Sequence record: KC295538
Direction: 5' to 3' (one strand)
DNA: 64,000 bases
DNA from: Escherichia phage PBECO4
The notes under the pieces are model-generated. The model did no database searches, had not been told where the DNA came from, and worked only from the letters and a program-made list of their open reading frames with translations. A program made the position numbers and the translations under genes. This document shows, piece after piece, positions 5,721-29,327 of this stretch. The first letter of the stretch is position 1, and the number at the start of each line of letters is the position of its first letter.

Positions 5721-5923
5721 TTTGAATCTCCTAACTTTGTGGGCCGTCGCACCATTGCCGCCCTACGAGATACATTATTGCAGTACTGATATACTTTGTC
5801 AATACTTTTTTATTAATAGTTTTAGTTCCACCAGCAGATAGTTACTCACCGTTATTAACTATATATTTTGGATACACTTATGCACCCTGTGGGCTGATTT
5901 GTTTCTATGCGTATATAATAGCA

Positions 5924-5951
5924 AAGGGACTGACCGGAGTCAATCCCTTTT
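5924..5951. terminator. TTGACT-containing hairpin flanked by A-run and T-run (bidirectional terminator-like, copy 1 of 12)
   Basis: aaagggactgaccggagtcaatcccttttt; same element recurs 11 more times. Confidence 0.5.
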
Positions 5952-7998: not shown

Positions 7999-8179
7999 GA
8001 TTTTATTCCTTATTGCCAGGGAGAACCGTTTCCCCCTCTCGATATAAAACATTATACTTGATTCTAAGTACAATGCAAGTACTTTTTTAAAATAGTTTTC
8101 AGTACTGAATACTTATATAATAGATACACTTCCGCACCCTATGGGTCAGTGAGTTATCTCTCAATGAATATATAATAGC

Positions 8180-8210
8180 AAAGGGACTGACCGGAGTCAA
8201 TCCCTTTTTT
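8180..8210. terminator. TTGACT-containing hairpin element (copy 2)
   Basis: aagggactgaccggagtcaatccctttttt. Confidence 0.5.
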
Positions 8211-11258: not shown

Positions 11259-11398
11259 TTACTCCTGGTTATGTCGTTATTAAACATTATACGGGGTTAT
11301 AGATAGTTTTCAAGTATATTTCAGTACTAGCCACCAGCATATAATAGATACATTTATGCACCCTATGGGCTGATTTTTTTCTATGCGTATATAATAGC

Positions 11399-11430
11399 AA
11401 AGGGACTGACCGGAGTCAATCCCTTTTTTA
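11399..11430. terminator. TTGACT-containing hairpin element (copy 3)
   Basis: agggactgaccggagtcaatccctttttt. Confidence 0.5.
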
Positions 11431-11437
11431 ATTCTTT

Positions 11438-12483: not shown

Positions 12484-12510
12484 TTATTGTTATCCTCTAT
12501 TAAATTAATA

Positions 12511-12705: not shown

Positions 12706-12780
12706 TTCCTCTTAGTAGGGGAAGATGTTTCCCCTTGATGTAAGTACTATAACACTACTGGATAGTACTGTCAATACTTT
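12706..12780 (-). promoter_or_regulatory. promoter + 5' UTR hairpin
   Basis: hairpin aggggaagatgtttcccct; tgtcaa -35. Confidence 0.5.
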
Positions 12781-13038: not shown

Positions 13039-13369
13039 TATTTTAACCTCATTATAAAAATACTATAGTACTGTAATGCGACAATAATATTACTTGTTCT
13101 TACTTTTTCCAATCCACATGATACCACATATTCATCCCCATATGTGCGGAACGATACACCATGAAAATTTTTATACACTTGCACTACTAATCATAACCTT
13201 TCGTCTAACCAACTGCATAGAATTATACTACTTTACGCAAATTGATCAAGTATTGATCAGATCATTTTTTGATCAATATTATACAGTTACATTTGTGCAC
13301 CCTATGGGTTAGTGACGTTCTCGTCTTGATGTAAGTATTATGCCAGTACTTGATGATATTGTCAATAGT

Positions 13370-13567
13370 TTATTTTAATTTTTTTCTGTCATTGATTAAT
13401 GCTTTCAGTACTATACTAATGATTTGCAATGATTCATCAATGACTATAAAATTATTCTCTTTCATTAGATGATAGTTACCATTGATTGTATATTCTAAGG
13501 AGTACTGTTTACGTTTAATTTTTGATAATGTTTCTATTTGTTTTTGTACTGATTTCATGCTAATCAT
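13370..13567 (-). CDS. hypothetical protein
   Basis: Track ORF. Confidence 0.5.
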   Translation of the reverse strand: MISMKSVQKQIETLSKIKRKQYSLEYTINGNYHLMKENNFIVIDESLQIISIVLKALINDRKKLK

Positions 13568-13672
13568 TGTTAAACGTCCTGTAACGCATTCTAACGAGAT
13601 AAACGGTTTAGTACTGGCATTGTATAGGGTAATGAATTAAAGCCCACCAGCGTTAACCAGTGGGCTATAATC

Positions 13673-13816
13673 TTACATCTTGCGGATAATCTTAACAGTA
13701 TCTTTCACCGATTTACCGTCTTGCTGGCATTGCTCGATCATTGCGTATTGTTCTGCTGTAAGATCCTCGCCAGTTTTTGCCAGTACTGCGTCGATGAATG
13801 AATCCAGTGCGATCAT
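13673..13816 (-). CDS. hypothetical small protein (47 aa)
   Basis: Own translation MIALDSFIDAVLAKTGEDL..; promoter-like region upstream. Confidence 0.4.
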   Translation of the reverse strand: MIALDSFIDAVLAKTGEDLTAEQYAMIEQCQQDGKSVKDTVKIIRKM

Positions 13817-13915
13817 TTTGTTTCTCTCTTAGGTTAAGTTAACTACTGTTTATAAAACTTATTATACAGTACTATCAAACGTTGTCAATATCTTTAATAG
13901 TACTGGTAATATATT

Positions 13916-14095
13916 TTAGCGGTAATCGTCGTATGCTTTATTCACCTGGCGAATGTAACTTTCAAAGGCTTCGTCTACCGTTTCATACTCCCGAACATAA
14001 TCACCATAGGAAACTACATACATACCTTTTTGATCTTCAAACGACATGATGATAGAATCCAGGCCGATGATTTCAGTTTTTGCGATGATAGCCAT
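13916..14095 (-). CDS. hypothetical protein
   Basis: Track ORF trimmed to ATG 14095 (MAIIAKTE..). Confidence 0.55.
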   Translation of the reverse strand: MAIIAKTEIIGLDSIIMSFEDQKGMYVVSYGDYVREYETVDEAFESYIRQVNKAYDDYR

Positions 14096-14178
14096 TTTTA
14101 ATTCCTTAGTAGTGTAGTTGATAAAAGTTATTATGCCAGTACTATCAATCAGTGTCAATAGTACTGTGATAATATTTT

Positions 14179-14391
14179 TTAGTTAATAATAGTCAGTGTA
14201 AAATTGTAATCCCCTGCCTGGTATAGTACTTTATCGCCGAACGTTCCAACACGTTTCATATTGCAATAGATACCCATAACACTTTTTACATCTTTGATAT
14301 TCCGAACGCCAGTAATATCCTTGTTTAAATGATCGTGATCAGAAAATAAAACTTGTTTTGCATTTTTCAGTACAGTGCAGATATTAGCCAT
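14179..14391 (-). CDS. hypothetical protein
   Basis: Track ORF; promoter+hairpin 14392..14485. Confidence 0.6.
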   Translation of the reverse strand: MANICTVLKNAKQVLFSDHDHLNKDITGVRNIKDVKSVMGIYCNMKRVGTFGDKVLYQAGDYNFTLTIIN

Positions 14392-14485
14392 TTTGTTTTC
14401 TCTCTGTTAGTGGGGAGAATCATTTCTCCCCTTCATGTAACTTATTATACAGTACTATAATCTATTGTCAAACTATTTTTTTATA
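14392..14485 (-). promoter_or_regulatory. sigma70-like promoter + 5' UTR hairpin
   Basis: ggggagaatcatttctcccc hairpin identical to that at 12077..12159. Confidence 0.6.
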
Positions 14486-14827
14486 TTATTCGAAATCTTC
14501 TGGACCGGACTGATAATCATCTTCACCGTATGCACTTTCTAACTTCTCGCCAGTGTGATCATCAGTTAGTGAATCATCCTCATAATTCACGTCTACGCCT
14601 ACAATGTAAAACTGGCTATCGTCTGGATCATTGAAATTAATTTTCTGAATGTTTACAATAACTGTATTGATGCCCAGGACACAGCCATCAGCCGTTACAA
14701 AGTACTGATAGTTTTCACAACCGCCTGAATTGAAACCGTAATTGATTTCGGCCCGACCATCATTTAAACGCAGTGCCTGGGCGATGATTTCGTTTTCAAA
14801 GTTAGATTGAGCAATTGAGATAGTCAT
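14486..14827 (-). CDS. hypothetical acidic protein
   Basis: Track ORF; D/E-rich C-terminus. Confidence 0.6.
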   Translation of the reverse strand: MTISIAQSNFENEIIAQALRLNDGRAEINYGFNSGGCENYQYFVTADGCVLGINTVIVNIQKINFNDPDDSQFYIVGVDVNYEDDSLTDDHTGEKLESAYGEDDYQSGPEDFE

Positions 14828-15019
14828 GATTCGTTTCCTTATTACTAGGGGAAACCGTTTCCCCTTTCGATGTAAAACATTATACGCTTATTGAGATAGT
14901 TTGCAAGTACTTTTTATCAAATACTTTAAAATAGTTTTCAGTACTCAAACATTATACAATAGATACACTCCTGCACCCTGTGGGCTAGTGAGCTATCTCT
15001 CAATGATTATATAATAACA

Positions 15020-15049
15020 AAATGGCTGACCGAAGTCAACCACTTTTTT
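15020..15049. terminator. TTGACT-containing hairpin element (copy 4, variant)
   Basis: aatggctgaccgaagtcaaccacttttttc. Confidence 0.45.
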
Positions 15050-15052
15050 CAT

Positions 15053-15187
15053 TTATTTTTTAGCTTTAAGTACTGCGGCCTTTCGTGTCATGCCTTGCTT
15101 GATGTATTCCTGTACTTTCGCTTTACGTGCTTTAGCTTTATCTGCTTTAGTTTTAGGAGTACTGTAAACTATACCGTTAGGATTCAT
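15053..15187 (-). CDS. hypothetical small basic protein (44 aa)
   Basis: Own translation MNPNGIVYSTPKTKADKAKARKAK.. Confidence 0.35.
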   Translation of the reverse strand: MNPNGIVYSTPKTKADKAKARKAKVQEYIKQGMTRKAAVLKAKK

Positions 15188-15273
15188 TTAAATCACCATA
15201 AAGAATAGATAGGTTACTAACAACGCCGCGATCAATGCACCGACCAGGGCCGAACTGTAATAAGCTAAGGATC

Positions 15274-15426
15274 TCATTTTTTAGCCTGAAAATAATGTTT
15301 AATTTGTGCGGCGGTCAGTGCACAATTACGCAGGAAGTTTTCTGTATAACTGCGGCGAGTATTAAAAGAGAATTGACCTTTACCGTTACCGATAGTTACA
15401 TCCATCCGAGCGTTGTATTGTTTCAT
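15274..15426 (-). CDS. hypothetical small protein
   Basis: Track ORF 15274..15456 trimmed to MKQYNARMDV.. Confidence 0.5.
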   Translation of the reverse strand: MKQYNARMDVTIGNGKGQFSFNTRRSYTENFLRNCALTAAQIKHYFQAKK

Positions 15427-15507
15427 TTTGTATCTCCTGTTATCGGGGAGAATCATTTCTCCCCTTCATGTAAAACATTATACAGTACTAAAAACTAATT
15501 GCAAGTA
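15427..15507 (-). promoter_or_regulatory. sigma70-like promoter (TTGCAA -35) + 5' UTR hairpin
   Basis: ggggagaatcatttctcccc; ttgcaagtatt on +. Confidence 0.6.
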
Positions 15508-15750
15508 TTATTTTAAACTTTGTGCGACTAATTTCGCACGGTCAATCATATACTGCCATTTTTGGATCTCTTCTGGCAGAAAACGATATTCACCAATAAC
15601 AATAGTGATACACTTTTCAGCTTGGTCAATGTATGTAGTATCAATCTCGACTTGAACGGGTACACGTTCGCCGTATTCAGTCCCTGGGATAATGCAATCA
15701 TTATCATAAGTTACAGTAGTAGTAGTGTCTTTGATTAAAATTGTTTCCAT
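15508..15750 (-). CDS. hypothetical protein
   Basis: Track ORF. Confidence 0.6.
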   Translation of the reverse strand: METILIKDTTTTVTYDNDCIIPGTEYGERVPVQVEIDTTYIDQAEKCITIVIGEYRFLPEEIQKWQYMIDRAKLVAQSLK

Positions 15751-15819
15751 TATACTTTCCTCGTTAGGTGTAAGGGGAACGTTTTCCCCTTCATGTAAAA
15801 CATTATACAGTACTGAAAA
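15751..15819 (-). promoter_or_regulatory. sigma70-like promoter + 5' UTR hairpin
   Basis: aggggaacgttttcccct hairpin. Confidence 0.55.
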
Positions 15820-16029
15820 CTAATTGCAAGTACTTTCCGAAAGTAAATGCTCATACGCTGCATTAACTACATTTTCAATAACCGACTGTACAGAAAGATC
15901 CCCCACGTCCTGGCTATAGTAGAAATTGCTTACAGTGGTGTCATCGTATGCAAATACTTTACCAGGTACTGCATCAATCACATACATATTAACCTTTAAG
16001 ATGTCGATCTTATCCTGTACAGTAAGCAT
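15820..16029 (-). CDS. hypothetical protein
   Basis: Track ORF. Confidence 0.55.
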   Translation of the reverse strand: MLTVQDKIDILKVNMYVIDAVPGKVFAYDDTTVSNFYYSQDVGDLSVQSVIENVVNAAYEHLLSESTCN

Positions 16030-16034
16030 ATTAA

Positions 16035-16307
16035 TTAACCTTTTAAGTACTGGCTTAAGTAGTCTTTTTGATCTTCGGTGATTGCAGTCATCTTCCCTAG
16101 TACTGGATTGATGATATAATCCCCTGTAACGTCCTGTAACGCATTCTCAGGCGGTTTAACGGCTGGGGTAGCCATAGCCATTGCCTGGACTTGTTCGACG
16201 CTGTAACGCTCATAAAGGCGGCATTCTTCCGGTGTTAACATAGCATCAGTACGCTTCATCGGTTTAATGATGCTTTCGATCTCATTCAGTACTTGATTAA
16301 CGTTCAT
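16035..16307 (-). CDS. hypothetical protein
   Basis: Track ORF. Confidence 0.55.
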   Translation of the reverse strand: MNVNQVLNEIESIIKPMKRTDAMLTPEECRLYERYSVEQVQAMAMATPAVKPPENALQDVTGDYIINPVLGKMTAITEDQKDYLSQYLKG

Positions 16308-16358
16308 GGTATAATCCCCAATATAAGCGGCCTAAATCGACCGCTAACGATGTTTTGA

Positions 16359-16628
16359 TTAATAGGTGTAAGGTTGACGCTCAAACAATGATTGTACGCT
16401 GTACGCCCCGCTAATGGGCTTCGCTGGCAAATCAATTTTATATTGTTCACGCTTAAAGATAATAAAACGGCAATTGTTTTTAACATCAAAATTGATTGAA
16501 CGTTCCAGGAGTTTTCCATCGTGCACAAATACAAGATAACCGCTTGGTACTTGTTTTGTAGAACTGGTTGCAACCATAGACCGACGAACATGTGTACCTG
16601 CATCGATTAAAGTACTGATATTTTTCAT
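16359..16628 (-). CDS. hypothetical protein
   Basis: Track ORF; preferred over overlapping 16304..16603 frame. Confidence 0.5.
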   Translation of the reverse strand: MKNISTLIDAGTHVRRSMVATSSTKQVPSGYLVFVHDGKLLERSINFDVKNNCRFIIFKREQYKIDLPAKPISGAYSVQSLFERQPYTY

Positions 16629-16708
16629 TTTACTATCCTCTTAAGTTGATTTAATTTCTTTCCCCTATGCAGACACTGTATCAAAGTATCTGCATAAAGT
16701 AAAGCTAA

Positions 16709-17032
16709 TTAAAGATCTTTTTTACGTTTTACATCCTGTACAGTACAATGCAACGGGATAGACAAATCATTACACAAACGAGTAAGGGAGGTTTCAACAG
16801 TATCAAGCCCGTCTACTGATTCCTTTAAGAGATCAAACGCCGTTTGTTGATATGCATCTTCATAGCCATAAGTAAATGATTCAACCGCCAGATCATTCAA
16901 ACCGTTATCCAGTTCAACGCTTACATGACAAGAATGATAAGTATTGCCATATGAATCAGTCCAACGTTTACCGTCAACATTGATTGCATGGATTGCAGCC
17001 AGGGAAACGGTATTGATGATAGTTTTAGCCAT
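16709..17032 (-). CDS. hypothetical protein, paralog of 9939..10262
   Basis: Shared RWTD.YGNTYHSCHVS, FTYGY, DVKRKKDL. Confidence 0.6.
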   Translation of the reverse strand: MAKTIINTVSLAAIHAINVDGKRWTDSYGNTYHSCHVSVELDNGLNDLAVESFTYGYEDAYQQTAFDLLKESVDGLDTVETSLTRLCNDLSIPLHCTVQDVKRKKDL

Positions 17033-17123
17033 TTTAGTATTCCTTAAATTAATATGTGTCGTCTTGATAAAATCTATTATGCCAGTACTATCAAACTATG
17101 TCAATAGTACTGTGATAATATTT

Positions 17124-17336
17124 TTACTTACTTTCTTTCGCTGCTTTATATGTTGCCACTGCCATAACCACATCAGCACGAACAAAGTTTTTAACCGTGT
17201 CACTGTAATAATTGATCGCATCATCTATATCTGCGAACGTCCGATACATACCGCACCAAGATACTTTATAACCTTCTTTCACTTCTGCCAGTTTAACGAT
17301 AGTCTTGTTAACTTTGATTTTAGTAATGATAGCCAT
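17124..17336 (-). CDS. hypothetical protein
   Basis: Track ORF trimmed to ATG 17336 (MAIITKIKV..). Confidence 0.55.
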   Translation of the reverse strand: MAIITKIKVNKTIVKLAEVKEGYKVSWCGMYRTFADIDDAINYYSDTVKNFVRADVVMAVATYKAAKESK

Positions 17337-17423
17337 TTTAGTTTCCTCATTATCAGGGAGAACCATTTCTCCCCTTGATGTAATGTATTATACTTTATTC
17401 GATTTACTTTGCAAGTACTTTTT
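17337..17423 (-). promoter_or_regulatory. sigma70-like promoter + 5' UTR hairpin
   Basis: gggagaaccatttctcccc hairpin. Confidence 0.55.
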
Positions 17424-17651
17424 TTAATTTAATTCATCCAGGCAAAGGATACGCTCAACGCCCAAATCAGTTAAACTAATCGACGGCACTTGATAGGTTT
17501 CAATGTATGCTACACTTGCCCACTGACCGAACTCATTAACGGCCCAGGTATTCATTGCATTTTGCAATTCCGCACCTGCCTTGTTAGTAATGACTGCAAC
17601 TACTTGTTCGTTGCCAGTAGTACCAGATACGCGAGTAATGATAATAGCCAT
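17424..17651 (-). CDS. hypothetical protein
   Basis: Track ORF trimmed to ATG 17651 (MAIIITRVSG..). Confidence 0.55.
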   Translation of the reverse strand: MAIIITRVSGTTGNEQVVAVITNKAGAELQNAMNTWAVNEFGQWASVAYIETYQVPSISLTDLGVERILCLDELN

Positions 17652-17888
17652 TGTTTTGATTCCTTTGATTTGGAAGGAGAACCGTTTCCCCCTCTCGATG
17701 TAAAACATTATACGCTAATCTCTTAATCGTGCAAGTACTTTTTATTACTTTTTGCAAAATACTTTAAACGCTCTCAATCGCATTCTAACGACCTTAACGC
17801 CACCAGCTAGGGCGATGTATCAGATAATCAGTTTAATGCGTTAGAATCGATTCTAGGCGGTGCTGGTGGACTGGAATACTACAGACAC

Positions 17889-17915
17889 AAAAAAGCCCAC
17901 TGTTTAAGGTGGGCT
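17889..17915 (-). terminator. rho-independent terminator (minus strand)
   Basis: agcccactgtttaaggtgggct hairpin with A-run on + (U-run on minus), 3' of gene 17937..18419. Confidence 0.6.
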
Positions 17916-17936
17916 AGTGATTCAGTACTTTAATTG

Positions 17937-18419
17937 TTATGCTTCAACTTTGCGATGAGCTTCGATCCATTCCTCGCGAGTCATACCGCTTTCTTTGATA
18001 GCGTCCAGTACTACCGCAATGCAGTTACCGCGTACAGGAATCATATGTTCTTCCCCGTTATCAAGTACTACAGTAACACGTTCTTGAATCCATTTTTTAG
18101 GTTTAGATTCTGGCTTATCTTCACCATACTTAACCGCCAGGGCTTTATGTGCCATTTCTACAACTACTTCCAGATCCAATCCAGCCACCGCCGCCTGGAT
18201 ACTTTCGATTGTTGCTTGCAGTTCGGCTTCACGGGCTTTTTTCTGTTCTTCCAGTTCTGCTACCTTTTTGGCTTGCAGTTCTTTAGCTTCACTGTACGCA
18301 ATGTTAAAATTGTTGCGTACTGCTTTCATGGTATCGTTATCCAGGTCAGCCAACAATTCAGCAGCAATAACAGTATCGTTTGAAATCAGTGCTTTCAGGA
18401 ATGATTTTACATTAGCCAT
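17937..18419 (-). CDS. hypothetical protein (predicted coiled-coil segment)
   Basis: Track ORF trimmed to MANVKSF..; central AKELQAKKVAELEEQKKAREAELQ heptad-like stretch. Confidence 0.6.
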   Translation of the reverse strand: MANVKSFLKALISNDTVIAAELLADLDNDTMKAVRNNFNIAYSEAKELQAKKVAELEEQKKAREAELQATIESIQAAVAGLDLEVVVEMAHKALAVKYGEDKPESKPKKWIQERVTVVLDNGEEHMIPVRGNCIAVVLDAIKESGMTREEWIEAHRKVEA

Positions 18420-18623
18420 TTTATAAATCCTCAATTAAAGTTTAGTTTACGTTTATTAGTGTATCAAAGTTTTATCGACGTGTCCAGTTTTTCGTTCGAC
18501 TTACTGGCGGTCTACTTAGTGCTCCCCGTCTTGATGTAATACATTCTACGCCTTTTTGTGGTAATGTCAACTACTATTTTAAAACTATTTTTAAAGTATG
18601 CAGTACTACGATAATACAAAAAC

Positions 18624-18650
18624 AAAAAAGCCCACTGTTTAAGGTGGGCT
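18624..18650 (-). terminator. rho-independent terminator (minus strand)
   Basis: Second copy of agcccactgtttaaggtgggct with A-run. Confidence 0.6.
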
Positions 18651-18667
18651 AGTGATTCAGTACTATA

Positions 18668-18967
18668 TTATAAACAGTTAATTACTCCGGTGTGCGTTAC
18701 TTTCTCAGTATCCATAACCGTGACCGATCCACGCTTAGTACTTACATCGTAATAAATTGTCGTGCTACCTTTTTCGTCTTCTTCATGGAACGGGCCGCTT
18801 TTAAATGCTTCTGGCTGGATCTCTAAATCCTTTAAAACAATCTCGCCAGTACTTTCATCTGTCATCGCAACAGTGCACTGAATGAATTTTTCACTACTTA
18901 CATCTAACGACGCATTAACAGCGAAAGAGGAAACAGATAAAGCCAGGGCGATGATTGCAATTTTCAT
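18668..18967 (-). CDS. small secreted protein (signal peptide)
   Basis: MKIAIIALALSVSSFAVNA N-terminus. Confidence 0.6.
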   Translation of the reverse strand: MKIAIIALALSVSSFAVNASLDVSSEKFIQCTVAMTDESTGEIVLKDLEIQPEAFKSGPFHEEDEKGSTTIYYDVSTKRGSVTVMDTEKVTHTGVINCL

Positions 18968-19051
18968 TTGATTATCCTTAGTTACCAGGGGGAACCGCTC
19001 CCCCGTGCGATGTAAAATATTGTACAGTACTAAAAACTAATTGCAAGTACT
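18968..19051 (-). promoter_or_regulatory. sigma70-like promoter + 5' UTR hairpin
   Basis: agggggaaccgctccccct hairpin. Confidence 0.55.
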
Positions 19052-19288
19052 TTATGATTTTTTATAAAACATTTCGGCAGTAATATTTTTACCCGTTGGT
19101 TGTACTTTATCCAGAATTTTTTGATGCCCTGGCCGTCCAAATGAATATGATCCGTAAACCGTAAACCAGTAGTTACCCTCAGTGTTTACATGTACAGCAC
19201 AATAGGGAACGCCCCGCGATTCATCACCAATAAAGTGTGATACCGTTCCCGTTACATTAGCAGACGTTGATTTGATTTGTTCAAGCAT
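19052..19288 (-). CDS. hypothetical protein
   Basis: Track ORF. Confidence 0.55.
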   Translation of the reverse strand: MLEQIKSTSANVTGTVSHFIGDESRGVPYCAVHVNTEGNYWFTVYGSYSFGRPGHQKILDKVQPTGKNITAEMFYKKS

Positions 19289-19397
19289 TTTCTTATTCCT
19301 TAGTTACCAGGGGGAACCGCTCCCCCTATGCAAAACATTATACGCGTTTAAAAACTAATAGCAAGTATTTTAATAAAAAGTATTTGAAAAATAATTG

Positions 19398-19426
19398 TTG
19401 ACAACTGCATCCAGTACTGGCATAAT
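19398..19426 (+). promoter_or_regulatory. + strand sigma70-like promoter (TTGACA-N17-CATAAT) driving a short noncoding transcript
   Basis: ttgaca 19398..19403, cataat 19421..19426; downstream box ctaacccaccgggtgc; no + strand ORF. Confidence 0.45.
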
Positions 19427-19500
19427 TACTACATCAAGACGAAACAGTCACTAACCCACCGGGTGCCGAGATCCGTCTATTAAATGATTCAGTACTTAAC

Positions 19501-19524
19501 AATAAAGGGGATCAATCGATCCCC
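19501..19524 (-). terminator. hairpin terminator (minus strand; may also stop the + strand transcript)
   Basis: ggggatcaatcgatcccc with flanking A/T runs immediately 3' of gene 19531..19752. Confidence 0.5.
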
Positions 19525-19530
19525 TATGTA

Positions 19531-19752
19531 TTACTTAGTAAGGTATAAACAGAAGTCACCTTTATTTGCTACGCCGCCAGTGTAACGCGATGAATAGTTA
19601 GAAACGTCCTGGACTTCTGCTATTACCAGTGTATCATCATTCAATTCGTCGCAGAAGCAAACGGCTGGATCTTTTACGCCGATCTTGTCGGCATGTTCCC
19701 GCATAGATTTAACCAGTGCTTCCAGTTGAGAAAGAGTAGTGATATTAGCCAT
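19531..19752 (-). CDS. hypothetical protein
   Basis: Track ORF trimmed to ATG 19752 (MANITTLSQ..). Confidence 0.55.
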   Translation of the reverse strand: MANITTLSQLEALVKSMREHADKIGVKDPAVCFCDELNDDTLVIAEVQDVSNYSSRYTGGVANKGDFCLYLTK

Positions 19753-19836
19753 TGTATTTTCCTCATTACCAGGGAGAACCATTTCTCCCCTCTATGTAAA
19801 CTATTATACAGTACTGAAAACTAATTGCAAGTACTT
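19753..19836 (-). promoter_or_regulatory. sigma70-like promoter + 5' UTR hairpin
   Basis: gggagaaccatttctcccc hairpin. Confidence 0.55.
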
Positions 19837-20025
19837 TTAATTAAATTCCATAAAATCATTCTCAACGTGCACAACAATTTGATTGTTTTTAAAGTCCGCA
19901 GCGAACTCGATGCAATCATAAACCGCTTTTTGTGTTACAATGCTATGAGTACCAATCGGATTAATAGGGGATTGAATTGTTTCAATCTCGTTCCCTTGCT
20001 CATTAACAATTAAAATATTAAACAT
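19837..20025 (-). CDS. hypothetical protein
   Basis: Track ORF. Confidence 0.5.
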   Translation of the reverse strand: MFNILIVNEQGNEIETIQSPINPIGTHSIVTQKAVYDCIEFAADFKNNQIVVHVENDFMEFN

Positions 20026-20081
20026 CGCTGTTACTCCTGGGTAGTGTTAACTCGATATAAAGTATTATACGCCTTTATTGC

Positions 20082-20324
20082 TTAGTGTCCAGTACTTTTT
20101 AAAACATATTCATAAACACTACGCACATCATTGATCATCGCCTGGCGGTTAGCAGGTAACGCACCAGGATCGCCACTATCCCAGGCATTGATAAAACTCC
20201 CCAAATCATGAAAGATTTTATTCTGTAAGCCGATTAACTGCAATTCTTTTTCTTCAAGCTCTTTGATACGGTCAATTAAAAGACTCATTAGATAATCCTC
20301 AGTACTTAATTGTAAGATCCGCAA
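20082..20324 (-). CDS. hypothetical protein
   Basis: Track ORF. Confidence 0.5.
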   Translation of the reverse strand: MRILQLSTEDYLMSLLIDRIKELEEKELQLIGLQNKIFHDLGSFINAWDSGDPGALPANRQAMINDVRSVYEYVLKSTGH

Positions 20325-20632
20325 CGGTTACAATAGTGCCCGTCTTCCTCGTCATCGTCAACGAATTGACCGACGAAATTATCTACTTTCTCTTTGAGAT
20401 TCTGATAATTGTTTTCAACTTCCTTTAGACGTTCCTGGTAGTATTCCAGGGCTTGCACATACGCCGCCTCAGCCGTTTTCGCTCTTAAGGCTAAATTCAT
20501 GCCACGCGTTTCATCGTACATCCAAAAGCCATCGGTGCACTCACTGATTGACAATGATTTGGTTAACACTTTATAGTCAATTACTTTGCTCATTAGATAA
20601 TCCTCAGTAAAGGCGGGAACCACACCCGCCAT
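20306..20632 (-). CDS. hypothetical protein
   Basis: Track ORF; C-terminal CNRC. Confidence 0.5.
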   Translation of the reverse strand: MAGVVPAFTEDYLMSKVIDYKVLTKSLSISECTDGFWMYDETRGMNLALRAKTAEAAYVQALEYYQERLKEVENNYQNLKEKVDNFVGQFVDDDEEDGHYCNRCGSYN

Positions 20633-20649
20633 TGATTCAGTACTGAATG

Positions 20650-20889
20650 TTACATTCCAACCATTGCAGCACGGATCGCCGTAGTGCTATACTTGAATCC
20701 GTCCGGTGTTGTAGTAGTACCGTTGGCTTTTAATCTGCGGTACATACATTGGGCCGCAATATCTTTAGTTTTACATTGTGCGATGCAACTTTGAGCAAGC
20801 CGATATAATGACTCACCGTTATTAATCCACAATGAAACATTCCAATGAGTTTTGTTTTTGTGCCCGTTGTAAGTTTTAGTAGTAGCCAT
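20650..20889 (-). CDS. hypothetical protein, paralog of 22698..22937
   Basis: Shared GHKNKTHWNVSLWINN..LYRLAQ and C-terminal TPDGFKYSTTAIRAAMVGM. Confidence 0.6.
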   Translation of the reverse strand: MATTKTYNGHKNKTHWNVSLWINNGESLYRLAQSCIAQCKTKDIAAQCMYRRLKANGTTTTPDGFKYSTTAIRAAMVGM

Positions 20890-20985
20890 TTTTAAATCCT
20901 CGTTTAATTGAGCGGGAGAACCATTCCCCCGCCTCGATATAAAGTATTATACGCTTTTAAACTTAGTTTGCAAGTACTTTTTAAA
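20890..20985 (-). promoter_or_regulatory. sigma70-like promoter + 5' UTR hairpin
   Basis: gcgggagaaccattcccccgc hairpin. Confidence 0.55.
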
Positions 20986-21597
20986 TTAATATGCGATTGA
21001 TTCTACTACGTCATCAATAACATTGAATTGATACTCGTTACCCTCGATCAGTGCCGTGATGTTCTCAGTAGTGAATTGATCCTCATATGCATTCTCTAAA
21101 TCACGGTACAACTTGCGGGACAATTCACGAATAGTATCAGTGAGTAGTTCCTCAAGCTCATTAACTAACGTTTCTTGTTTTGCGGTTAAATCAGTGTAAG
21201 CCGATTCAATGTACCCGCTTACAGTATTCTCATGCGAGTAGTGGGAGTGCGAACGCTTTACACTCATCGCCAAATCATCTTCATTCAGCAAGTGACGGAT
21301 TGAGCGATACTTAGTTAATGCTCTTACCTTGCGTAAAAACTTCACTGCGTCAACGTGGTCAGTACTGATTGATGCACCGTCACCCTGGGACCAAAAACCA
21401 CTGAATTGTATTTCAGCTTCATTAATGCCATATTCCGGTAGTACTGTTTCTTTATAGTATTCAATTTCACTTTCAGAAAAATAATTGTCGTTTGAGTTTT
21501 TTTCACGTTCCCGAACCAGTTCGATAGCTGACGTTTGTTGTTCTGCGTTCAATTCAGAAAAATCCATAACGAAAGTAGTAGTAGTGATAGTTTTCAT
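20986..21597 (-). CDS. hypothetical acidic protein (203 aa)
   Basis: Track ORF. Confidence 0.6.
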   Translation of the reverse strand: MKTITTTTFVMDFSELNAEQQTSAIELVREREKNSNDNYFSESEIEYYKETVLPEYGINEAEIQFSGFWSQGDGASISTDHVDAVKFLRKVRALTKYRSIRHLLNEDDLAMSVKRSHSHYSHENTVSGYIESAYTDLTAKQETLVNELEELLTDTIRELSRKLYRDLENAYEDQFTTENITALIEGNEYQFNVIDDVVESIAY

Positions 21598-21819
21598 TTT
21601 GTAACCCTCATTCAGTAGTTGATGTAAGTATTATACGCTTTTAAAAACATTTGTCAAACTATTTTATCAGGGGAGTTTTTCGTGTGCCTTACTCCTGGGC
21701 TACTTAACGGGAAGTTACTTATTTCGTTCCCCGTCCTGATGTAAAACATTATACGCCTTTAAACATAGTTTGCAAGTACTTTTTAAAAATAGTTTTCAGT
21801 ACTGAATATTAAAAAAGTA

Positions 21820-21848
21820 TTGACAGCATTATCAAGTACTGGCATAAT
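21820..21848 (+). promoter_or_regulatory. + strand sigma70-like promoter (TTGACA-N17-CATAAT) driving a short noncoding transcript
   Basis: ttgaca 21820..21825, cataat 21843..21848; downstream ctaacccaccgggtgc box then atagatacactcccgcaccctatgggct box. Confidence 0.45.
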
Positions 21849-22022
21849 ATACCACATGACAACAGCTAACCCACCGGGTGCACAATTGTAACTATACTAA
21901 ACTAATTTTTCTATAGATACACTCCCGCACCCTATGGGCTACGGCTTATCTGCCAATGAATACATTATGCCAGTACTGACAAAATAAGTCAATACCGGCA
22001 ATTGTAAAGATTTGTAAACTAC

Positions 22023-22253
22023 TTATACTGCAATCGCGTCCAGGCTATAATAATAATAAGTGCCGTATTGGTGTACTTTATTACCTTTTATTTCAGTACT
22101 GAATGAATCCGAACGATTTGCATATGATGTTAATTTAAAGTACTTTGATTTGCTGATACGTTGCCATACACCACAGATCCGCTGTAAGTAAGTAGTTTTA
22201 TTCGTGGTAGTATCTTTTACGGTTTTAACTTCAGTCATATACATATTAGTCAT
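22023..22253 (-). CDS. hypothetical protein
   Basis: Track ORF. Confidence 0.55.
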   Translation of the reverse strand: MTNMYMTEVKTVKDTTTNKTTYLQRICGVWQRISKSKYFKLTSYANRSDSFSTEIKGNKVHQYGTYYYYSLDAIAV

Positions 22254-22340
22254 TTTTATTACTCCAGGTTATAGGCGGGAAGAGTTCCCGCTCTCGATGT
22301 AAAACATTATACGCCTTTAAACATAGTTTGCAAGTACTTT
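22254..22340 (-). promoter_or_regulatory. sigma70-like promoter + 5' UTR hairpin
   Basis: gcgggaagagttcccgc hairpin. Confidence 0.55.
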
Positions 22341-22607
22341 TTATTCAAGTACTGCAATCTTTTTAGTACGGTACACGGTCACGCGGTTGCCCTTTCGGTC
22401 GAGCTTTATTTCTACCACTCGACGCGATACACTATCGGGACTTTTTAAGGCCGCTAACCAGTACTGTAATGATCTGGCTGTACTACGCTTTACAATGGCC
22501 CAACGTTTACCACGTTCCGATTGTACGCCCATATCTTTAAACGTTGCCCCGTCCTGGCGTGCGGCGATCCGAGCTTGTTCACGCGTCGCAAAATACTTAA
22601 TATTCAT
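22341..22607 (-). CDS. hypothetical protein, paralog of 9448..9843
   Basis: Trimmed to ATG 22607 (MNIKYFATREQARIAARQDGATFKDMG..). Confidence 0.6.
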   Translation of the reverse strand: MNIKYFATREQARIAARQDGATFKDMGVQSERGKRWAIVKRSTARSLQYWLAALKSPDSVSRRVVEIKLDRKGNRVTVYRTKKIAVLE

Positions 22608-22697
22608 GCTGTTGCCCTTATCGTTGGTGTATGAATAAAACACTATTATAAAGTACTATCGCAAAAAATGATAGTACTTTAAATAAATTCTATTCTA

Positions 22698-22937
22698 TTA
22701 CATTCCAACCATCGCCGCACGGATCGCAGTAGTGCTATACTTAAAGCCGTCCGGTGTTTTATCTTGTCCAGTCTGTTCTAAAAATAGCATCATATGACGG
22801 GCCGCATCATTACGATTAGTATTGGCGGCAATAAAGTCCTGGGCCAACCGATACAATCCCTCATCGTTATTAATCCAAAGGCTTACATTCCAATGAGTTT
22901 TGTTTTTGTGACCTAAGAACATTTTTGATTTAGCCAT
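22698..22937 (-). CDS. hypothetical protein, paralog of 20650..20889
   Basis: Trimmed to ATG 22937 (MAKSKMFLGHKNKTHWN..). Confidence 0.6.
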   Translation of the reverse strand: MAKSKMFLGHKNKTHWNVSLWINNDEGLYRLAQDFIAANTNRNDAARHMMLFLEQTGQDKTPDGFKYSTTAIRAAMVGM

Positions 22938-23019
22938 TTTTTTAATCCTCTTATATAGTGGGGAACTATTCCCCACCTGATGTAAAGTATTATACGCTTT
23001 TAAATTTAGTTTGCAAGTA
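22938..23019 (-). promoter_or_regulatory. sigma70-like promoter + 5' UTR hairpin
   Basis: gtggggaactattccccac hairpin. Confidence 0.55.
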
Positions 23020-23253
23020 CTATTTTTTCAGTACTGGTAAACCTTTGATCTCACCTGGCTGTACTTCCTCAAAGGCGACCGCCATCATACGGCTATCATC
23101 TTCCTTACATTCTTCCATCGCATCACAAAAATGATTAATAACGTCCGGTGCAACGTCAACCACATCAAACAAGCCAACCTCAGTGCAACGGCTTAAAGCG
23201 TTTAATAGGTCAGTCAGTGCAACGGATTGAGAAACAGTTAAAATAGTACTCAT
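23020..23253 (-). CDS. hypothetical acidic protein
   Basis: Track ORF. Confidence 0.55.
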   Translation of the reverse strand: MSTILTVSQSVALTDLLNALSRCTEVGLFDVVDVAPDVINHFCDAMEECKEDDSRMMAVAFEEVQPGEIKGLPVLKK

Positions 23254-23347
23254 ACAATTAATCTCTTAATTATAGTGGGGAACTATTCCCCACCTGATGT
23301 AAAACATTATACGCTTTTAAACTTAGTTTGCAAGTACTTTATTAAAC
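23254..23347 (-). promoter_or_regulatory. sigma70-like promoter + 5' UTR hairpin
   Basis: Same hairpin as 22938..23019. Confidence 0.55.
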
Positions 23348-23710
23348 TTATTTGTAAATTTTGCCACTGTCAGCCCATACCAGGAAACGAGGCATATTAT
23401 CCCATGCATCTTGTTTTAAATTTAAACCGTGCAATTCCTCAGTAGTTGCCATCCCTGGTACTGGCTTACTACACACCGCGAAATTTTCGCCCATATACTG
23501 ATAAACCATCGTCAAATCATTTGAGATCATCTTATGGATCATCGCATCAAGCATCACGGTAGCGGCGTATTGTTCACGCTTAAGCGGCAGCATTTTAATC
23601 AGTTCGCGGTATGCGTCAATGTGAGTTTTAACCGTTGCCGCCGGAAGATCTTTCATCTCGTCGCGGAAGTTAACCAGGTTAGCAATAATTTTGGTGATTT
23701 GAGTTGCCAT
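23348..23710 (-). CDS. hypothetical protein
   Basis: Track ORF trimmed to ATG 23710 (MATQITKIIA..). Confidence 0.6.
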   Translation of the reverse strand: MATQITKIIANLVNFRDEMKDLPAATVKTHIDAYRELIKMLPLKREQYAATVMLDAMIHKMISNDLTMVYQYMGENFAVCSKPVPGMATTEELHGLNLKQDAWDNMPRFLVWADSGKIYK

Positions 23711-23800
23711 CGTTTTAATCTCTCTTAAAGTGTAGCGGGAACACTTCCCGCTCTCGATGTAAAACATTATACGCTTTTATCAGTACGGTGCAAGTACTTT
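23711..23800 (-). promoter_or_regulatory. sigma70-like promoter + 5' UTR hairpin (last unit before noncoding hub)
   Basis: gcgggaacacttcccgc hairpin. Confidence 0.55.
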
Positions 23801-23825
23801 CTACAAATACTTTTAAAATAGTTTT

Positions 23826-23917
23826 CTTTCTATATAGGAGTACTATTATTCAGTACTGAATCAATCCAGGGGAACTATCTTTCTATATAGGAGTACTATT
23901 ATTCAGTACTGAATCAA
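23826..23917. repeat. 39-bp direct repeat x2
   Basis: ctttctatataggagtactattattcagtactgaatcaa at 23826..23864 and 23879..23917. Confidence 0.7.
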
Positions 23918-24069
23918 CCAAATCACTACTACACCCCATAAAACGGCCTCAGACGCATTCTAACGCATTAATACACCTAAGCTATACATTTGCACCACTC
24001 CCAACAATCCAGGGCGTTACGGGCCGTTTAAACGCGTTAAATTATTTTCAATTATTTTGTTTTTAGGTA

Positions 24070-24097
24070 TTGACTTGATCCTGAAAAAGCGTATAAT
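24070..24097 (+). promoter_or_regulatory. + strand promoter (TTGACT-N16-TATAAT)
   Basis: ttgact 24070..24075, tataat 24092..24097; downstream gggtgcgg ... ccgcaccc long-range inverted repeat. Confidence 0.45.
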
Positions 24098-24284
24098 TAC
24101 TACATAGACGCGAGAAAGCGGAAACCCCAGAGGGTGCGGAATTACGCCCAAAATTCAAGATATAAAAAAAGGATACACTCCCGCACCCTAGCAGGTAAAC
24201 GCACTTTCTCAGTACTGAATTATAGTACCATAGTCCGGCCCAGGATGGCAAGCAAATTAATTAAAACTTTTTTCATCCAGGGTA

Positions 24285-24312
24285 TTGCTTTATTTTTCCA
24301 GTACTGTATAAT
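24285..24312 (+). promoter_or_regulatory. + strand promoter with TTGCTTTA box upstream of TATAAT (resembles a T4 MotA-box middle promoter)
   Basis: tattgctttat 24283..24293, tataat 24307..24312; downstream cccaccgggtgc box. Confidence 0.35.
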
Positions 24313-24533
24313 AGTTCCATCAAGTCGAGAAAGACTCAAGCCCACCGGGTGCATAGTTACGCCCAAAATTCAGTACTGAAAAAATTTTTAAAAATATCCG
24401 TCCAGGCCGTTGACATTGCCCCCAGTTTATAAGATAATGATTCCAGATTCAGAAAAATCTAACTCCAGATACTGCGGGGAAACTATCCCCACGCGGTAGG
24501 GGAACTATTGGAAAAAACAAAATAAAATTTTGA

Positions 24534-24680
24534 TTTAGCCGTCTATACTTCCAGACGTGTAACCATCTAGCCGTTTAGCCGTCCAAACGTCTAGCCATCC
24601 AGCCATCCAGAAATCTAGCCGTTTAGCCGTCTAGATGGATAGCCATCTTTACTTCCAGACTTCTGGAGGGCTAGACATAT
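24534..24680. repeat. iteron-like cluster of ~8 short direct repeats (TAGCCGT/TAGCCAT) flanked by tacttccagac repeats
   Basis: ctagccgtttagccgtc, ctagccatccagccatccag, ctagccgtttagccgtctag; tacttccagac at ~24546 and ~24651. Confidence 0.6.
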
Positions 24681-25705
24681 CTACGTCCAAAATCCACCCA
24701 GGGTAACTACGCCCAAAATCCGTCAGTACTATACCATAGATCTATCTTTTGAAAGGGAGTATTCAGTACTGCCACAATAGCCCTCACTATGTTACCCTAG
24801 GAGGATGAAGACTATCATGTAGTACTGAATACTGTTAGAGGGAATCCACCAGCTTGTGCTGGTGGCATAATGCTTTAGATTAAAATCAGTACTGACACCA
24901 TTCTGTTAATATCAGTACTGTTATTACGATTTTCATATGAGGTTCAAAAAGATGTACCACCACAGGAGGAACTATCTTTTCTGTACTGTCTCACGACAGG
25001 AGGTAGAGTAAATGAATTGTTCGCAGCAACTCATCACCCTATGTAGAACATTATACAGTACTGAATCATAATGTCAATAGCTTTCTTTCATTATTCAGTA
25101 CTGATATTCTTGAGAACTACCCGACTACAAACATCATTATATCCCACAAATCATAAACGTCCCAACGTAAATTTCAACTTTCGAAGATCCAACTTTTATT
25201 TCATAGGTACTCCAAAATTTTTAGGATCGAGATTTAGGATGGAGTACTAACCAACTTTTTGCTGGAGCCTCAAGGGGTAATGGAATTTTACCCCGAAGGG
25301 TAAAGGGGTAATTGAAATTAAGGTGAAAGTAATAATTCAGTACTAATCATTGCGTGATTACTTTTGATTACATTTGATGTAATTTGAAAAATGGAAAAGG
25401 AGCTTGGAAACTACAAAGTACGGCAGACTTCCTCTGCCTACTTAGTGGCATATCAGTACTGAATCCTTCCCGTGCATTCTTGAGCATTCTTGTCTATACT
25501 AATCAGTACTGAATCATATATAATCATTCTGTGATTCTACGGTGCTCATATAAATGTTTATATATGATTACTTATGACTACCTATGATTACGGGGTTTAG
25601 CCTGGGGAGAATCCTAGTGATCGCATTTGTCCAGGCTGAATTTTAACAATTCGCCTGTACATAAAGGTTGTTCACTAGGAGCTTCCCCTGTCTACTTGTG
25701 TTTAA

Positions 25706-27641: not shown

Positions 27642-28308
27642 CATAGTTTGTAATATACGTAATGAGGTGATGCATTTTCTTATTAGTACTGATAATTTCC
27701 TGTACATGTTTTGTCAGATTGTACGCGTTTTTATAGAGTGCTGGATTATCGATTACAGTACTGTACATGAATAGTTCTTCCTCGGATAATTCTTTGCCTT
27801 GTAATTCTTTGAGGAATTGTAGTACTGTATCAGTTTCTTCTGTACGTTGTGCTTGCCAGAAGTGCATATTCTCGTGTACTTTTTCTGCATCAGTAGAGTA
27901 TATGCCACCCATTTGGAATTGTGCTGTATTGACATCGTGGGAGGTGTTACAATTCCCGAAGAAGTATGTATTCCCGAAGTATAGCATTAAAGTGCACGGG
28001 GTATTATCCAACTGCATATTGATGATGAAGGATGCGTTCTTTAGTACCTTTGTGCTCGTATTAGTACTCAATACTTTTAAATCAGTATTATAGATATTCA
28101 TATAATGAACAGCTATATTATTTTTCTTCATGTACAATTCAAGGTTCTTTGATACGTTAACTCCATTTGTACTGGATTTTTCCTTTTTATTTCGTTTCTT
28201 TAGTACATTCGGGTGATACGTATATGCAGATGTAACTGATTCTGCCTGAATACTATTGAGGTACTTAAAGTGCTTAAGGTATTGTTTGCTGTGTGCATTA
28301 AGTTTCAT
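27637..28308 (-). CDS. hypothetical protein (223 aa) embedded in family B array
   Basis: Track ORF; overlaps next start; no family motif. Confidence 0.55.
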   Translation of the reverse strand: MKLNAHSKQYLKHFKYLNSIQAESVTSAYTYHPNVLKKRNKKEKSSTNGVNVSKNLELYMKKNNIAVHYMNIYNTDLKVLSTNTSTKVLKNASFIINMQLDNTPCTLMLYFGNTYFFGNCNTSHDVNTAQFQMGGIYSTDAEKVHENMHFWQAQRTEETDTVLQFLKELQGKELSEEELFMYSTVIDNPALYKNAYNLTKHVQEIISTNKKMHHLITYITNYV

Positions 28309-29125: not shown

Positions 29126-29327
29126 AGAAATATATTAGTCCTATTAAACCTGAGTACATAATATTTTTGTTATTACATTCGATTGCTTCTATAGTACTAC
29201 GTATACAATTATTAAAGCAATCTCTGGCGTGTGGTGTATCTATACTTAAAGGTGATACACTCCTTAGAAACAATTGTTCTTCGTTGCTAAGGTATTTGGT
29301 GTAGAATTCTTTATGTTCAGTATTCAT
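29118..29327 (-). CDS. small protein, family B paralog
   Basis: MNTEHKEFYTKYLSNEEQ.. Confidence 0.55.
   Translation of the reverse strand: MNTEHKEFYTKYLSNEEQLFLRSVSPLSIDTPHARDCFNNCIRSTIEAIECNNKNIMYSGLIGLIYFYE

Follow-up and report, generated by a model that had tools for sequence, protein, structure and literature searches.

Why should strong promoters stand where there seems to be no gene for them to serve? The question is raised by a stretch of 64,000 nucleotides from Escherichia phage PBECO4 (record KC295538; this whole stretch is called the window below). In it an earlier note, made from the sequence alone, had marked four plus-strand promoters at 19398, 21820, 24070 and 24285, in territory of minus-strand genes and followed by a common box, and had proposed that their short transcripts are small RNAs, antisense regulators or primers of replication. 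The answer we propose combines the promoter and the first ~50 nucleotides of its transcript into one module, of which these sites are four copies out of 11, all confined to the direct terminal repeat (DTR) of the genome and conserved in several genera of jumbo phages. Because the family is real, coupled to promoters, structured as RNA and independent of orientation, we infer that the module exists for its RNA, or for the making of that RNA, and not for the expression of a particular downstream gene.

The window is DNA of an Asteriusvirus jumbo coliphage similar to 121Q, PBECO4 and G17: in a megablast search, the part 19300-24500 shows 94-98% identity to the ~350-kb Escherichia and Salmonella jumbo phages of this genus (121Q, G17, phAPEC6, vB_Ec-M-J). 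In vB_Ec-M-J the matching DNA belongs to an annotated DTR of 21.5 kb that starts at record position 1, and in fEgEco12 a DTR of 20,993 bp has been confirmed by PhageTerm and restriction digests (PMC13070987). The record starts of the relatives, mapped onto the window, place the physical genome end at ~25.1-25.45 kb, and the DTR therefore occupies ~3.9-25.4 kb of the window (~21 kb). The deposited relatives fall on two end points, ~25130 (fEgEco12, E9.1, CRJP21) and ~25450 (vB_Ec-M-J, BF17, ELP-22), which reflect either indels in the region or a differing definition of the termini. The small genes of the DTR lie on the minus strand throughout, so that their transcription proceeds from the genome end inward, and most of them possess their own TTGCAA-16-TATAAT promoter.

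The four plus-strand promoters are indeed present (scores of 11/12, 11/12, 11/12 and 9/12), and so is the common box, as the exact CCCACCGGGTGC at 19455, 21870 and 24341 and as the variant CCCAGAGGGTGC at 24126. With at most two mismatches, the box has 11 matches in the window versus 0.77 expected, a number reached in none of 100 shuffles; six of these matches are on the minus strand, and a listing by GGGTGC adds a seventh (24188). Counted by GGGTGC, the 11 sites are 19461, 21876, 24132 and 24347 on the plus strand and 5887, 8139, 11363, 13302, 14978, 21932 and 24188 on the minus strand. The four sites first seen are thus real but incomplete, the seven minus-strand copies, each behind its own promoter, having been missed. 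The ccgcaccc at 24181, once taken for an independent pairing element, is actually the box of a convergent minus-strand copy, as is the GCACCCTATGGG at 21927. The absence of downstream plus-strand ORFs holds at three sites for a length of at least 40 aa and breaks down for an ORF of 81 aa at 24134-24379; this ORF is frameshifted in G17 and vB_Ec-M-J, and a coding reading was rejected. Neither do the four sites form a special antisense class: they are four of the 11 members of one family, the other seven lying on the gene strand, so antisense regulation cannot be its defining function. The same 7:4 split is found in the phages Muenster and CBB, with 11 copies per DTR each, seven with the genes and four against them, and the occurrence of the module is independent of orientation.

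All 11 copies share one layout: a strong promoter, a leader of about 20-28 nt and the box. The -10 element is TGn-extended in nine of the promoters, and transcription is predicted to begin at the A in a conserved (T/A)CAT. From there the transcript reads a hairpin (P1), a YURR linker, CCCAYN, GGGUGC, a purine-rich RRRRNU and YRYCY, and the conserved, covarying segment runs from +1 to about +55, an RNA of ~50 nt at the 5' end of the transcript. GGGUGC is invariant, and the box CCCACCGGGTGC constitutes the invariant core of the module. The stems of P1, of 3-5 bp, vary by copy (UGAG/CUCA, UGGC/GCCG, GACG/CGUC, AGUC/GACU, CGC/GCG) and close loops drawn from a small purine-rich set (GCGAAA, GAGAAA, AGAUAA, AGAACAA, GUGUAA). 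About 25% of the copies, including that of 21820, have no P1 stem and keep an A-rich AUAGAAACAA-like stretch, the box lying 5 nt nearer the promoter.

The coupling to a promoter holds throughout the family: 99 of the 106 distinct boxes have a sigma70 promoter of at least 9/12 at a fixed distance, whereas such a promoter accompanies 8.8% of positions drawn at random from these loci. From the end of the -10 element to GGGTGC there are 27 nt in the class without the P1 hairpin or 31-36 nt (mostly 32-34), and the motif is therefore always the extreme 5' end of the transcript. The five co-oriented copies inspected (5887, 8139, 11363, 13302 and 14978) lie just past the terminator of the upstream gene and have a separate promoter for the next gene within 60-90 nt, as in the unit 8122..8200, where this second promoter comes after the module; the genes are therefore independent of the module promoter. 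Antisense copies are found at the same place between genes, with the module turned round.

This position near the promoter, always at the 5' end, is also what would be expected from the main rival, a nut-like antitermination leader, in which P1, as a boxB-like hairpin, and the single-stranded box would recruit a factor of the phage or the host, or bind RNA polymerase directly, to render the elongating polymerase insensitive to the terminators of the DTR, the antisense copies giving read-through antisense transcription that would help to shut off the early genes. Intrinsic terminators are abundant in the DTR, many modules begin right past one, and seven of the 11 copies are oriented with the genes. 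Moreover, lambdoid boxB RNAs follow a GNR(N)A pentaloop pattern, and the P1 loops fit this pattern (GCGAA, GAGAA, GAACA, GUGUA) plus an A, on stems of only 3-5 bp that 25% of the copies do not have. At 3-4 bp, however, the P1 stems in this comparison fall short of the stems in boxB or put, and boxA (CGCUCUUA / GCUCUUUAACAA) is found at no module, its seven matches with at most two mismatches in the window comparing with 8.3 expected. A crude screen of the DTR ORFs, for at least five Arg in the first 30 residues, gave no credible N-type protein and leaves other kinds of RNA-binding protein possible. Furthermore, the five inspected co-oriented copies are followed by the gene's own promoter, which makes the module dispensable for the gene, no gene lies ahead of a third of the copies, and the minus-strand copy at 24188 terminates at its own P2, the second helix described below. 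The lambdoid nut (boxA + boxB) and HK022 put elements resemble the module as promoter-proximal RNAs with a small GNRA-like, purine-looped hairpin by a single-stranded box in a terminator-rich region; they differ in having boxA, two copies instead of 11 in both orientations, longer stems than 3-5 bp, another order than hairpin then box, an N-like protein and no copy that terminates on itself. We regard such a leader as unlikely.

What the promoters have in common beyond the DNA is a structure of the RNA. A covariance model, R1, was built from 15 gap-free copies, with four pairs in P1 and five in P2, a helix of GGGUG with YRYCY. Covariation of the copies, suggested from the start as a check, is complete for P1 in the family-wide alignment, all four pairs showing double-sided compensatory changes in the R1 alignment of copies (for example GC41/CG24/AU6/GU3 and CG31/AU22/GC19/UA2, with zero unpaired cells at both). 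Paired cells reach 95.9% for P1 and P2 and 94.9% for P1 alone, versus 31-60% in slid-partner controls, and double-sided cells number 154 versus 50 in shuffles, with none of 500 shuffles as high; being counted on an alignment fitted to the model, these figures lean towards structure. The variety of the stems, about 25 different ones for P1, is visible in the raw sequences too, without the fitted alignment. The non-Watson-Crick cells of P1 are G.U in 11 cases and A.C in none; folding is thus a property of the sense strand, the one transcribed.

In P2 the 5' side is invariant and the 3' side changes only in ways that preserve pairing (U-A 69/U.G 30; G.U 77/G-C 21); P2 is paired in 96.6% of the cells and, on an unfitted MAFFT alignment, in 88% versus 34-65% for slid controls. 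RNAalifold recovers P1 independently and pairs GGG(U) with the upstream (R)CCC, in a mini-hairpin with a loop of 3 to 4 nt, and not with the P2 partner. A change of CC(C->U) with (G->A)GG occurs in two R1 matches, at 10433-10480 of locus L004, where RNAalifold scores it as U-A, and at 4522-4571 of locus L011, where it is shifted in the alignment and was read by eye. The two partners of GGGUG, CCC upstream and YRYCY downstream, are mutually exclusive, which suggests a two-state element. Other readings of the same segment were tried and rejected: a mini-ORF (an SD-like GGGUG followed by RUG-UAU-CUA-UAG) is limited to about one copy in two; long-range pairing of UAUCU with AGAUA of the P1 loop, favoured in some single-sequence folds, fails family-wide; and CsrA-type GGA and RegB-type GGAG in the P2 loop are found in only 49% and 36% of the copies. 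An apparent likeness of GGGUGC...ACGCC to part of RNase P RNA is probably a coincidence.

The same box could be read at the level of the DNA, its CCC-N3-GGG and the inverted pairs of modules forming the site of a phage repressor that shuts these promoters. It lies at about +22 to +34, where a bound protein could block elongation, and contains a short inverted repeat, the pairs making larger palindromes. But the invariant GGGTGC is asymmetric and always points the same way from its promoter, P1 is marked by covariation and not by conservation, the pairing of P2 relies on wobble pairs that belong to RNA only, and spacings of 56, 67, 74 and 78 bp put the two members of a pair out of helical register. 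An operator role is hardly probable.

The covariation also bears on the nearest thing described, the promoter-early stem-loop (PeSL), a composite terminator/promoter cassette of T4-like phages (PMC2839356, Arbiol et al. 2010; PMC4122927, Comeau et al. 2014). In four of the copies (5887, 8139, 11363 and 14978) the -35 element TTGACT lies within a bidirectional terminator hairpin, the other seven having none, and this fusion, with TTGACT in the stem-loop, is kept in Klebsiella, Pectobacterium and Cronobacter phages. As in the PeSLs, likewise elements of large myoviruses, a near-consensus sigma70 early promoter and a stem-loop terminator are repeated between the small ORFan genes of a plastic early region. 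The modules might accordingly be recombination or regulatory cassettes that shuffle small early genes, their transcribed segment having no function as RNA and either being homogenised by gene conversion or serving promoter escape. The -35 inside a terminator hairpin, in four window copies and in many copies of the relatives, is that of T4-type PeSLs (PMC4122927), the setting is the same and inversion could yield both orientations. Gene conversion homogenises, however, and would not yield some 25 P1 stems that differ by compensatory changes while loop and box stay constant; the asymmetry of G.U versus A.C indicates selection on the sense RNA; and the invariance of GGGUGC over ~100 copies of several genera exceeds that of the promoter hexamers. 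The modules further differ from PeSLs in that the conserved part runs ~50 nt into the transcript, covarying around an invariant GGGUGC core, in that a third of the copies are antisense and some are paired convergently at a fixed spacing, and in the restriction of the family to the terminal repeat. A PeSL-like cassette alone accounts for the fusion of terminator and promoter, not for the covariation, and we consider it quite improbable as a full explanation.

How far does the family extend? Applied to every position of the window, R1 finds exactly 11 copies (E 7e-15 to 0.015), all within 5866-24368, the next match having E = 1. In a set of 25 loci it recovers 109 copies (99 distinct), in the DTRs of at least three named genera (Asteriusvirus, Alcyoneusvirus and Mimasvirus) and in further jumbo-phage contigs of IMG/VR. 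A 200-nt query over the 21820/21992 pair retrieves the minus-strand promoter and motif with 82-86% identity in RaK2, K64-1 and Muenster (Klebsiella), CBB (Pectobacterium), GAP32 (Cronobacter) and others, often in stretches annotated as terminal repeats. With a degenerate pattern, about ten ~350-kb contigs of IMG/VR are found, the matches of each being confined to one stretch of 15-24 kb, and those of CBB lie only in its two DTR copies. In 185,579 bacterial and archaeal genomes the same kind of search yields nine scattered single matches, roughly chance by our estimate, and mimicry of a host element is unlikely. At the gathering thresholds, Rfam 15 has no match in the whole window; at E <= 5, the part 19300-25600 gives four weak matches (RT-6 on the strand opposite the promoters, IS102 and skipping-rope), unrelated to the module RNA and far below gathering. 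ARAGORN finds no tRNA or tmRNA in the window, and the searchable literature does not mention the module, either by the sequence of its box or by topic (promoters and transcriptomes of Asteriusvirus or RaK2). The module family is thus without an Rfam family or a literature report, and the nearest described element is the PeSL cassette. In the Muenster locus (L003), a promoterless box CCCACTGGGTGC lies at 30404-30415, 22 nt from the genome terminus defined by PhageTerm, and in the module closest to this terminus (29129-29152) the P2 loop contains the ribosome-binding site of the first gene.

The first of the four sites gives the clearest idea of a discrete product. The RNA of 19398 is predicted to start at ~19433 and to end at a hairpin, 19506-19525, about 45 nt past the box, i.e. 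to measure ~95-100 nt; folded as a 104-nt RNA, the stretch has a z of -2.5. The whole unit (promoter, motif, AGTACT and hairpin) aligns with plus-strand units in G17, Muenster and RaK2, where P1 changes from GAC/GUC to GCC/GGC, the changes in the terminator stem are compensatory and the plus-strand tails are U-rich. The proteins flanking it in the E. coli and Klebsiella phages have no detectable relatedness (E = 0.15), and this non-coding unit, being more conserved than its coding neighbours, provides the strongest argument for a gene in its own right. Judged from its sequence, it looks like a small-RNA gene of ~100 nt. Only for this site did the proposal stand that the transcripts end at hairpins shared with converging genes: 21820 and 24070 are both directed against a module on the minus strand, and no clear terminator is seen past 24285. 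The 24188 copy, on the minus strand, has a P2 of 8 bp followed by U7, which constitutes an intrinsic terminator, and its RNA is predicted at ~53 nt. Bounded in this way, with their own promoter, no ORF and a terminator, are 19398 (plus), 24251 (minus) and the antisense copy of Muenster at 18441 (plus), which is followed by a strong plus-strand terminator; the gene-strand copies and 24285 (plus) are not.

The convergent pairs form a second kind of arrangement. In both pairs of the window the GGGTGC elements are offset by exactly 56 nt, and this offset recurs in GAP32, 121Q and several contigs of IMG/VR as well as in three pairs of CBB. Other pairs form a second class, with the two elements offset by 67-78 nt. 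Transcripts through the window pairs would be imperfect palindromes of ~110 nt (z = -4.5 and -3.8). In related phages, pairs with the 67-78-nt spacing enclose a palindrome, AATGATAATCATT / GAGAATGATAATCATT, which is absent from the two pairs of the window. We take it to resemble the Fur box consensus.

The pairs also speak for the proposal that the transcripts prime replication, in which a short RNA, G-rich at its 5' end, would stay on AT-rich DNA as an R-loop, there to prime synthesis or to flag the DTR as a region to be duplicated or processed; analogues are T4 oriF/oriG, ColE1 RNA II and the transcription required in the maturation of T7 concatemers. The modules are restricted to the DTR in either orientation, three plus-strand copies and one minus-strand copy lie within ~1.3 kb of the genome end, the exact offset of 56 nt is kept in Asteriusvirus, CBB, GAP32 and IMG/VR contigs, and AT-rich DNA follows the box. 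Like oriF/oriG, which belong to a distant relative, T4, the module puts a promoter before easily unwound AT-rich DNA and is usable in either orientation; those origins differ in using MotA-dependent middle promoters and in having no conserved structured RNA. But eleven copies per DTR are many for origins, the formation of an R-loop leaves the covariation of P1 and the alternative pairing unexplained, no helicase-loader or iteron link ties the modules to replication, and the spacing of the pairs can be explained by two abutting modules. We consider priming very improbable; it and the operator role are possible roles with little to support them.

The reading we favour, with a probability of about one half, is that the modules express, early in infection, a group of sibling small RNAs whose P1 loop and invariant GGGUGC core would serve for their recognition, the RNA itself being the functional product. 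The small-RNA proposal made for the four sites is thus favoured by the comparative evidence, namely a covarying structure coupled to promoters and, for the 19398 unit, conservation across genera. The DTR of these Rak2-like jumbo phages would be the first DNA to enter the cell and would act as a pre-early region, in which autonomous modules, each with a strong promoter for the sigma70 polymerase of the host and an RNA of ~50 nt, would produce an abundant set of early RNAs in vivo. Antisense copies would give discrete RNAs, of ~95-100 nt at 19398, ended by the bidirectional terminator, and of ~53 nt from 24251 (minus), ended by P2 and U7; gene-strand copies would carry the same 5' module on a read-through transcript. 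These RNAs would act in trans, their recognition being achieved by a protein or by base-pairing. The multicopy sibling small RNAs of enterobacteria, such as OmrA/B and Qrr1-5, are likewise paralogous short non-coding genes with an invariant 5' segment and their own promoters, and the 19398 unit adds an A/U-rich stretch and an intrinsic terminator; most modules differ from them in having no terminator of their own. In PA5oct, a distant relative dependent on the host RNA polymerase, two non-coding RNAs encoded in the DTR are among the most abundant phage transcripts (PMC7318152), and high expression of such RNAs is thus possible.

Several points weigh against this reading, beside the lean of the fitted pair counts. 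The gene-strand copies have no terminator of their own and, without processing, their RNA would be an mRNA's 5' leader; at 19398 itself, the U-tract that follows the 19506-19525 hairpin on the plus strand is weak in the window (UAUGUAUUACUU). The 25% of copies without a stem are tolerable for a single-stranded recognition element, but they weaken a strict-structure model. The PA5oct RNAs do not match the motif, which is absent from the DTR stretch searched in that phage (record positions 7000-24000, holding both RNAs), and no transcriptome of an Asteriusvirus, Alcyoneusvirus or Mimasvirus turned up in the literature.

Could the modules then be a phage RNA device of an unfamiliar class, produced within the first minutes from the DNA that enters earliest? 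We put this forward only tentatively. The RNAs might neutralise a host protein or a defence, as decoys or as small regulators, or the nascent RNA might be a two-state switch (CCC:GGG versus GGGUG:YRYCY) that reprograms the host RNA polymerase. In both forms the convergent pairs with the 56-nt offset near the genome end would act as a dedicated composite unit.

Table 1. Modules, terminators and related elements; positions are those of the window unless a locus (L) of a related phage is named.
Feature	Position	Strand	Promoter and predicted start	RNA elements	Score or remark
Module 1 (site 1)	19398..19478	+	TTGACA-17-CATAAT (19398-19426); -35 19398-19403; TGn-extended -10 19421-19426; start ~19433	P1 GAC/GUC (19438-19440 with 19447-19449), loop GAAACA; box CCCACCGGGTGC 19455-19466; P2 region to 19478	38.5 bits, E 1e-8; orthologous unit in G17, Muenster, RaK2
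Bidirectional hairpin AGGGGATCAATCGATCCCCT	19506..19525	both			ends minus-strand gene 19531-19782; likely 3' end of plus-strand RNA
Module 2 (site 2), hairpin-less	21820..21893	+	TTGACA-17-CATAAT (21820-21848); -35 21820-21825; -10 21843-21848; start ~21856	leader AUGACAACAGCUAA; box 21870-21881	19.9 bits, E 0.0016
Convergent partner of module 2	21915..21992	-	-35 21992-21987; -10 21969-21964; start ~21957	P1 UGGC-AGAUAA-GCCG; box CCCATAGGGTGC 21938-21927	41.5 bits; 82-85% identity in Klebsiella phages
Module 3 (site 3)	24070..24149	+	TTGACT-16-TATAAT (24070-24097); -35 24070-24075; -10 24092-24097; start ~24104	P1 CGC-GAGAAA-GCG; box CCCAGAGGGTGC 24126-24137; P2 GGGUG/CGCCC	33.8 bits
Convergent partner of module 3	24164..24251	-	TTGCCA-18-TACTAT; start ~24215	box CUGCUAGGGUGC (CCU:GGG variant); 8-bp P2 then U7	16.4 bits, partial; terminator scan 24189-24170
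Module 4 (site 4)	24285..24364	+	TTGCTT-16-TATAAT (24285-24312); start ~24319	P1 AGUC-GAGAAA-GACU; box 24341-24352; P2 GGGUG/CGCCC	47.4 bits
Co-oriented module, hairpin-less	5870..5943	-	-35 TTGACT in bidirectional terminator hairpin	box 5893-5882	35.3 bits
Co-oriented module	8122..8200	-	-35 in terminator hairpin	P1 UGAG-AGAUAA-CUCA; box 8145-8134	60.6 bits
Co-oriented module, hairpin-less	11346..11419	-		box 11369-11358	37.1 bits
Co-oriented module	13285..13365	-	type of sites 1 and 2 (TTGACA-N11-AGTACTGGCATAAT)	P1 GACG-AGAA-CGUC; box 13308-13297	26.7 bits
Co-oriented module	14961..15039	-	-35 in terminator hairpin	P1 UGAG-AGAUAG-CUCA; box 14984-14973	53.9 bits
Terminator hairpins (A-run, stem, T-run)	5925-5955, 8180-8212, 11400-11430, 15019-15046		hold the next -35 TTGACT
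Second-leader copies	19300-19335, 19755-19795, 20905-20945, 22270-22300, 22955-22985, 23270-23300, 23735-23765	-
Enclosed palindromes of convergent pairs	L003 ~27990-28030; L005 ~8080-8105, ~2820-2845; L009 ~1285-1305; L044 ~6090-6110

The terminal repeat holds other elements beside the modules. A second leader family, on the minus strand, follows the TTGCAA-16-TATAAT promoters of most small DTR genes with a hairpin of the GGGGAA-N3-5-UUCCCC type just 5' of the ribosome-binding site; one copy gives the weak skipping-rope match of Rfam (E = 0.21). To the right of the fourth site, a fifth strong plus-strand promoter (24410-24438, TTGACA-17-GATAAT, 11/12) has no box and is followed by GGGGAAACTATCCCC and GGGGAACTATT, similar to this second family. 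The non-coding stretch of ~1.7 kb adjoining the genome end contains an exact 40-nt repeat, 53 bp apart, at 23825-23917, a series of at least about a dozen units repeating every 8 bp (CGTCTAGC/CATCCAGC) at 24540-24691, and a degenerate, promoterless remnant of the box, CCCAGGGTAACTACGCCCAAAAT, at 24694-24719.

Two short sequences are greatly over-represented. The hexamer AGTACT occurs 266 times in the window versus 21.6 expected, a 12-fold excess that far exceeds that of every other palindromic hexamer (for example at 19412, 19809, 20638, 21797, 21971, 22094, 24210, 24299 and 24371), and CAGTACTG palindromes (n=56) are present in nearly all intergenic regions and within promoter spacers, with zero in 1-4000; AGTACT may be a binding or modification site of some factor. 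The Chi sequence of E. coli, GCTGGTGG, occurs 11 times versus 0.65 expected, ten times in the terminal repeat (5828-24865) and once at 50774. Eight of those ten are on the minus strand, by our reasoning the orientation that would stop RecBCD coming from the right genome end; an inverted pair stands back to back at 24846-24865, near the left end, and in related phages Chi is also found within the promoter spacers of modules.

Among the genes, 20650-20889 (minus) encodes a DUF7249 protein (Pfam E = 1e-13), and the paralogous 22698-22937 (minus) has the same N-terminal sequence, the Pfam scan having been made on 20650-20889 alone. The products of 9448-9843 and 22341-22607 (minus) are likewise paralogous, both starting with xxKFYATREAARIxAR. 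Just outside the DTR, four minus-strand genes (564, 1438, 2949 and 3158) have in common a coding stretch GGGTGC(A/T)TTC...ACTATCAG.

In conclusion, our observations bring forward a testable non-coding part of the pre-early programme of the Rak2-like jumbo phages (121Q, PBECO4, phAPEC6, RaK2, K64-1, GAP32 and CBB), which are in development for therapy and whose terminal repeats of ~20 kb are annotated merely as strings of hypothetical proteins. With about 11 copies per repeat and ~100 variants across genera, and with a covariance model ready for use in annotation, the module family is a candidate for a new interaction of RNA with a protein or with RNA polymerase in the takeover of the host. If the RNAs were indeed anti-defence decoys or an antitermination device, they would represent a new mechanism in a poorly understood group of phages.

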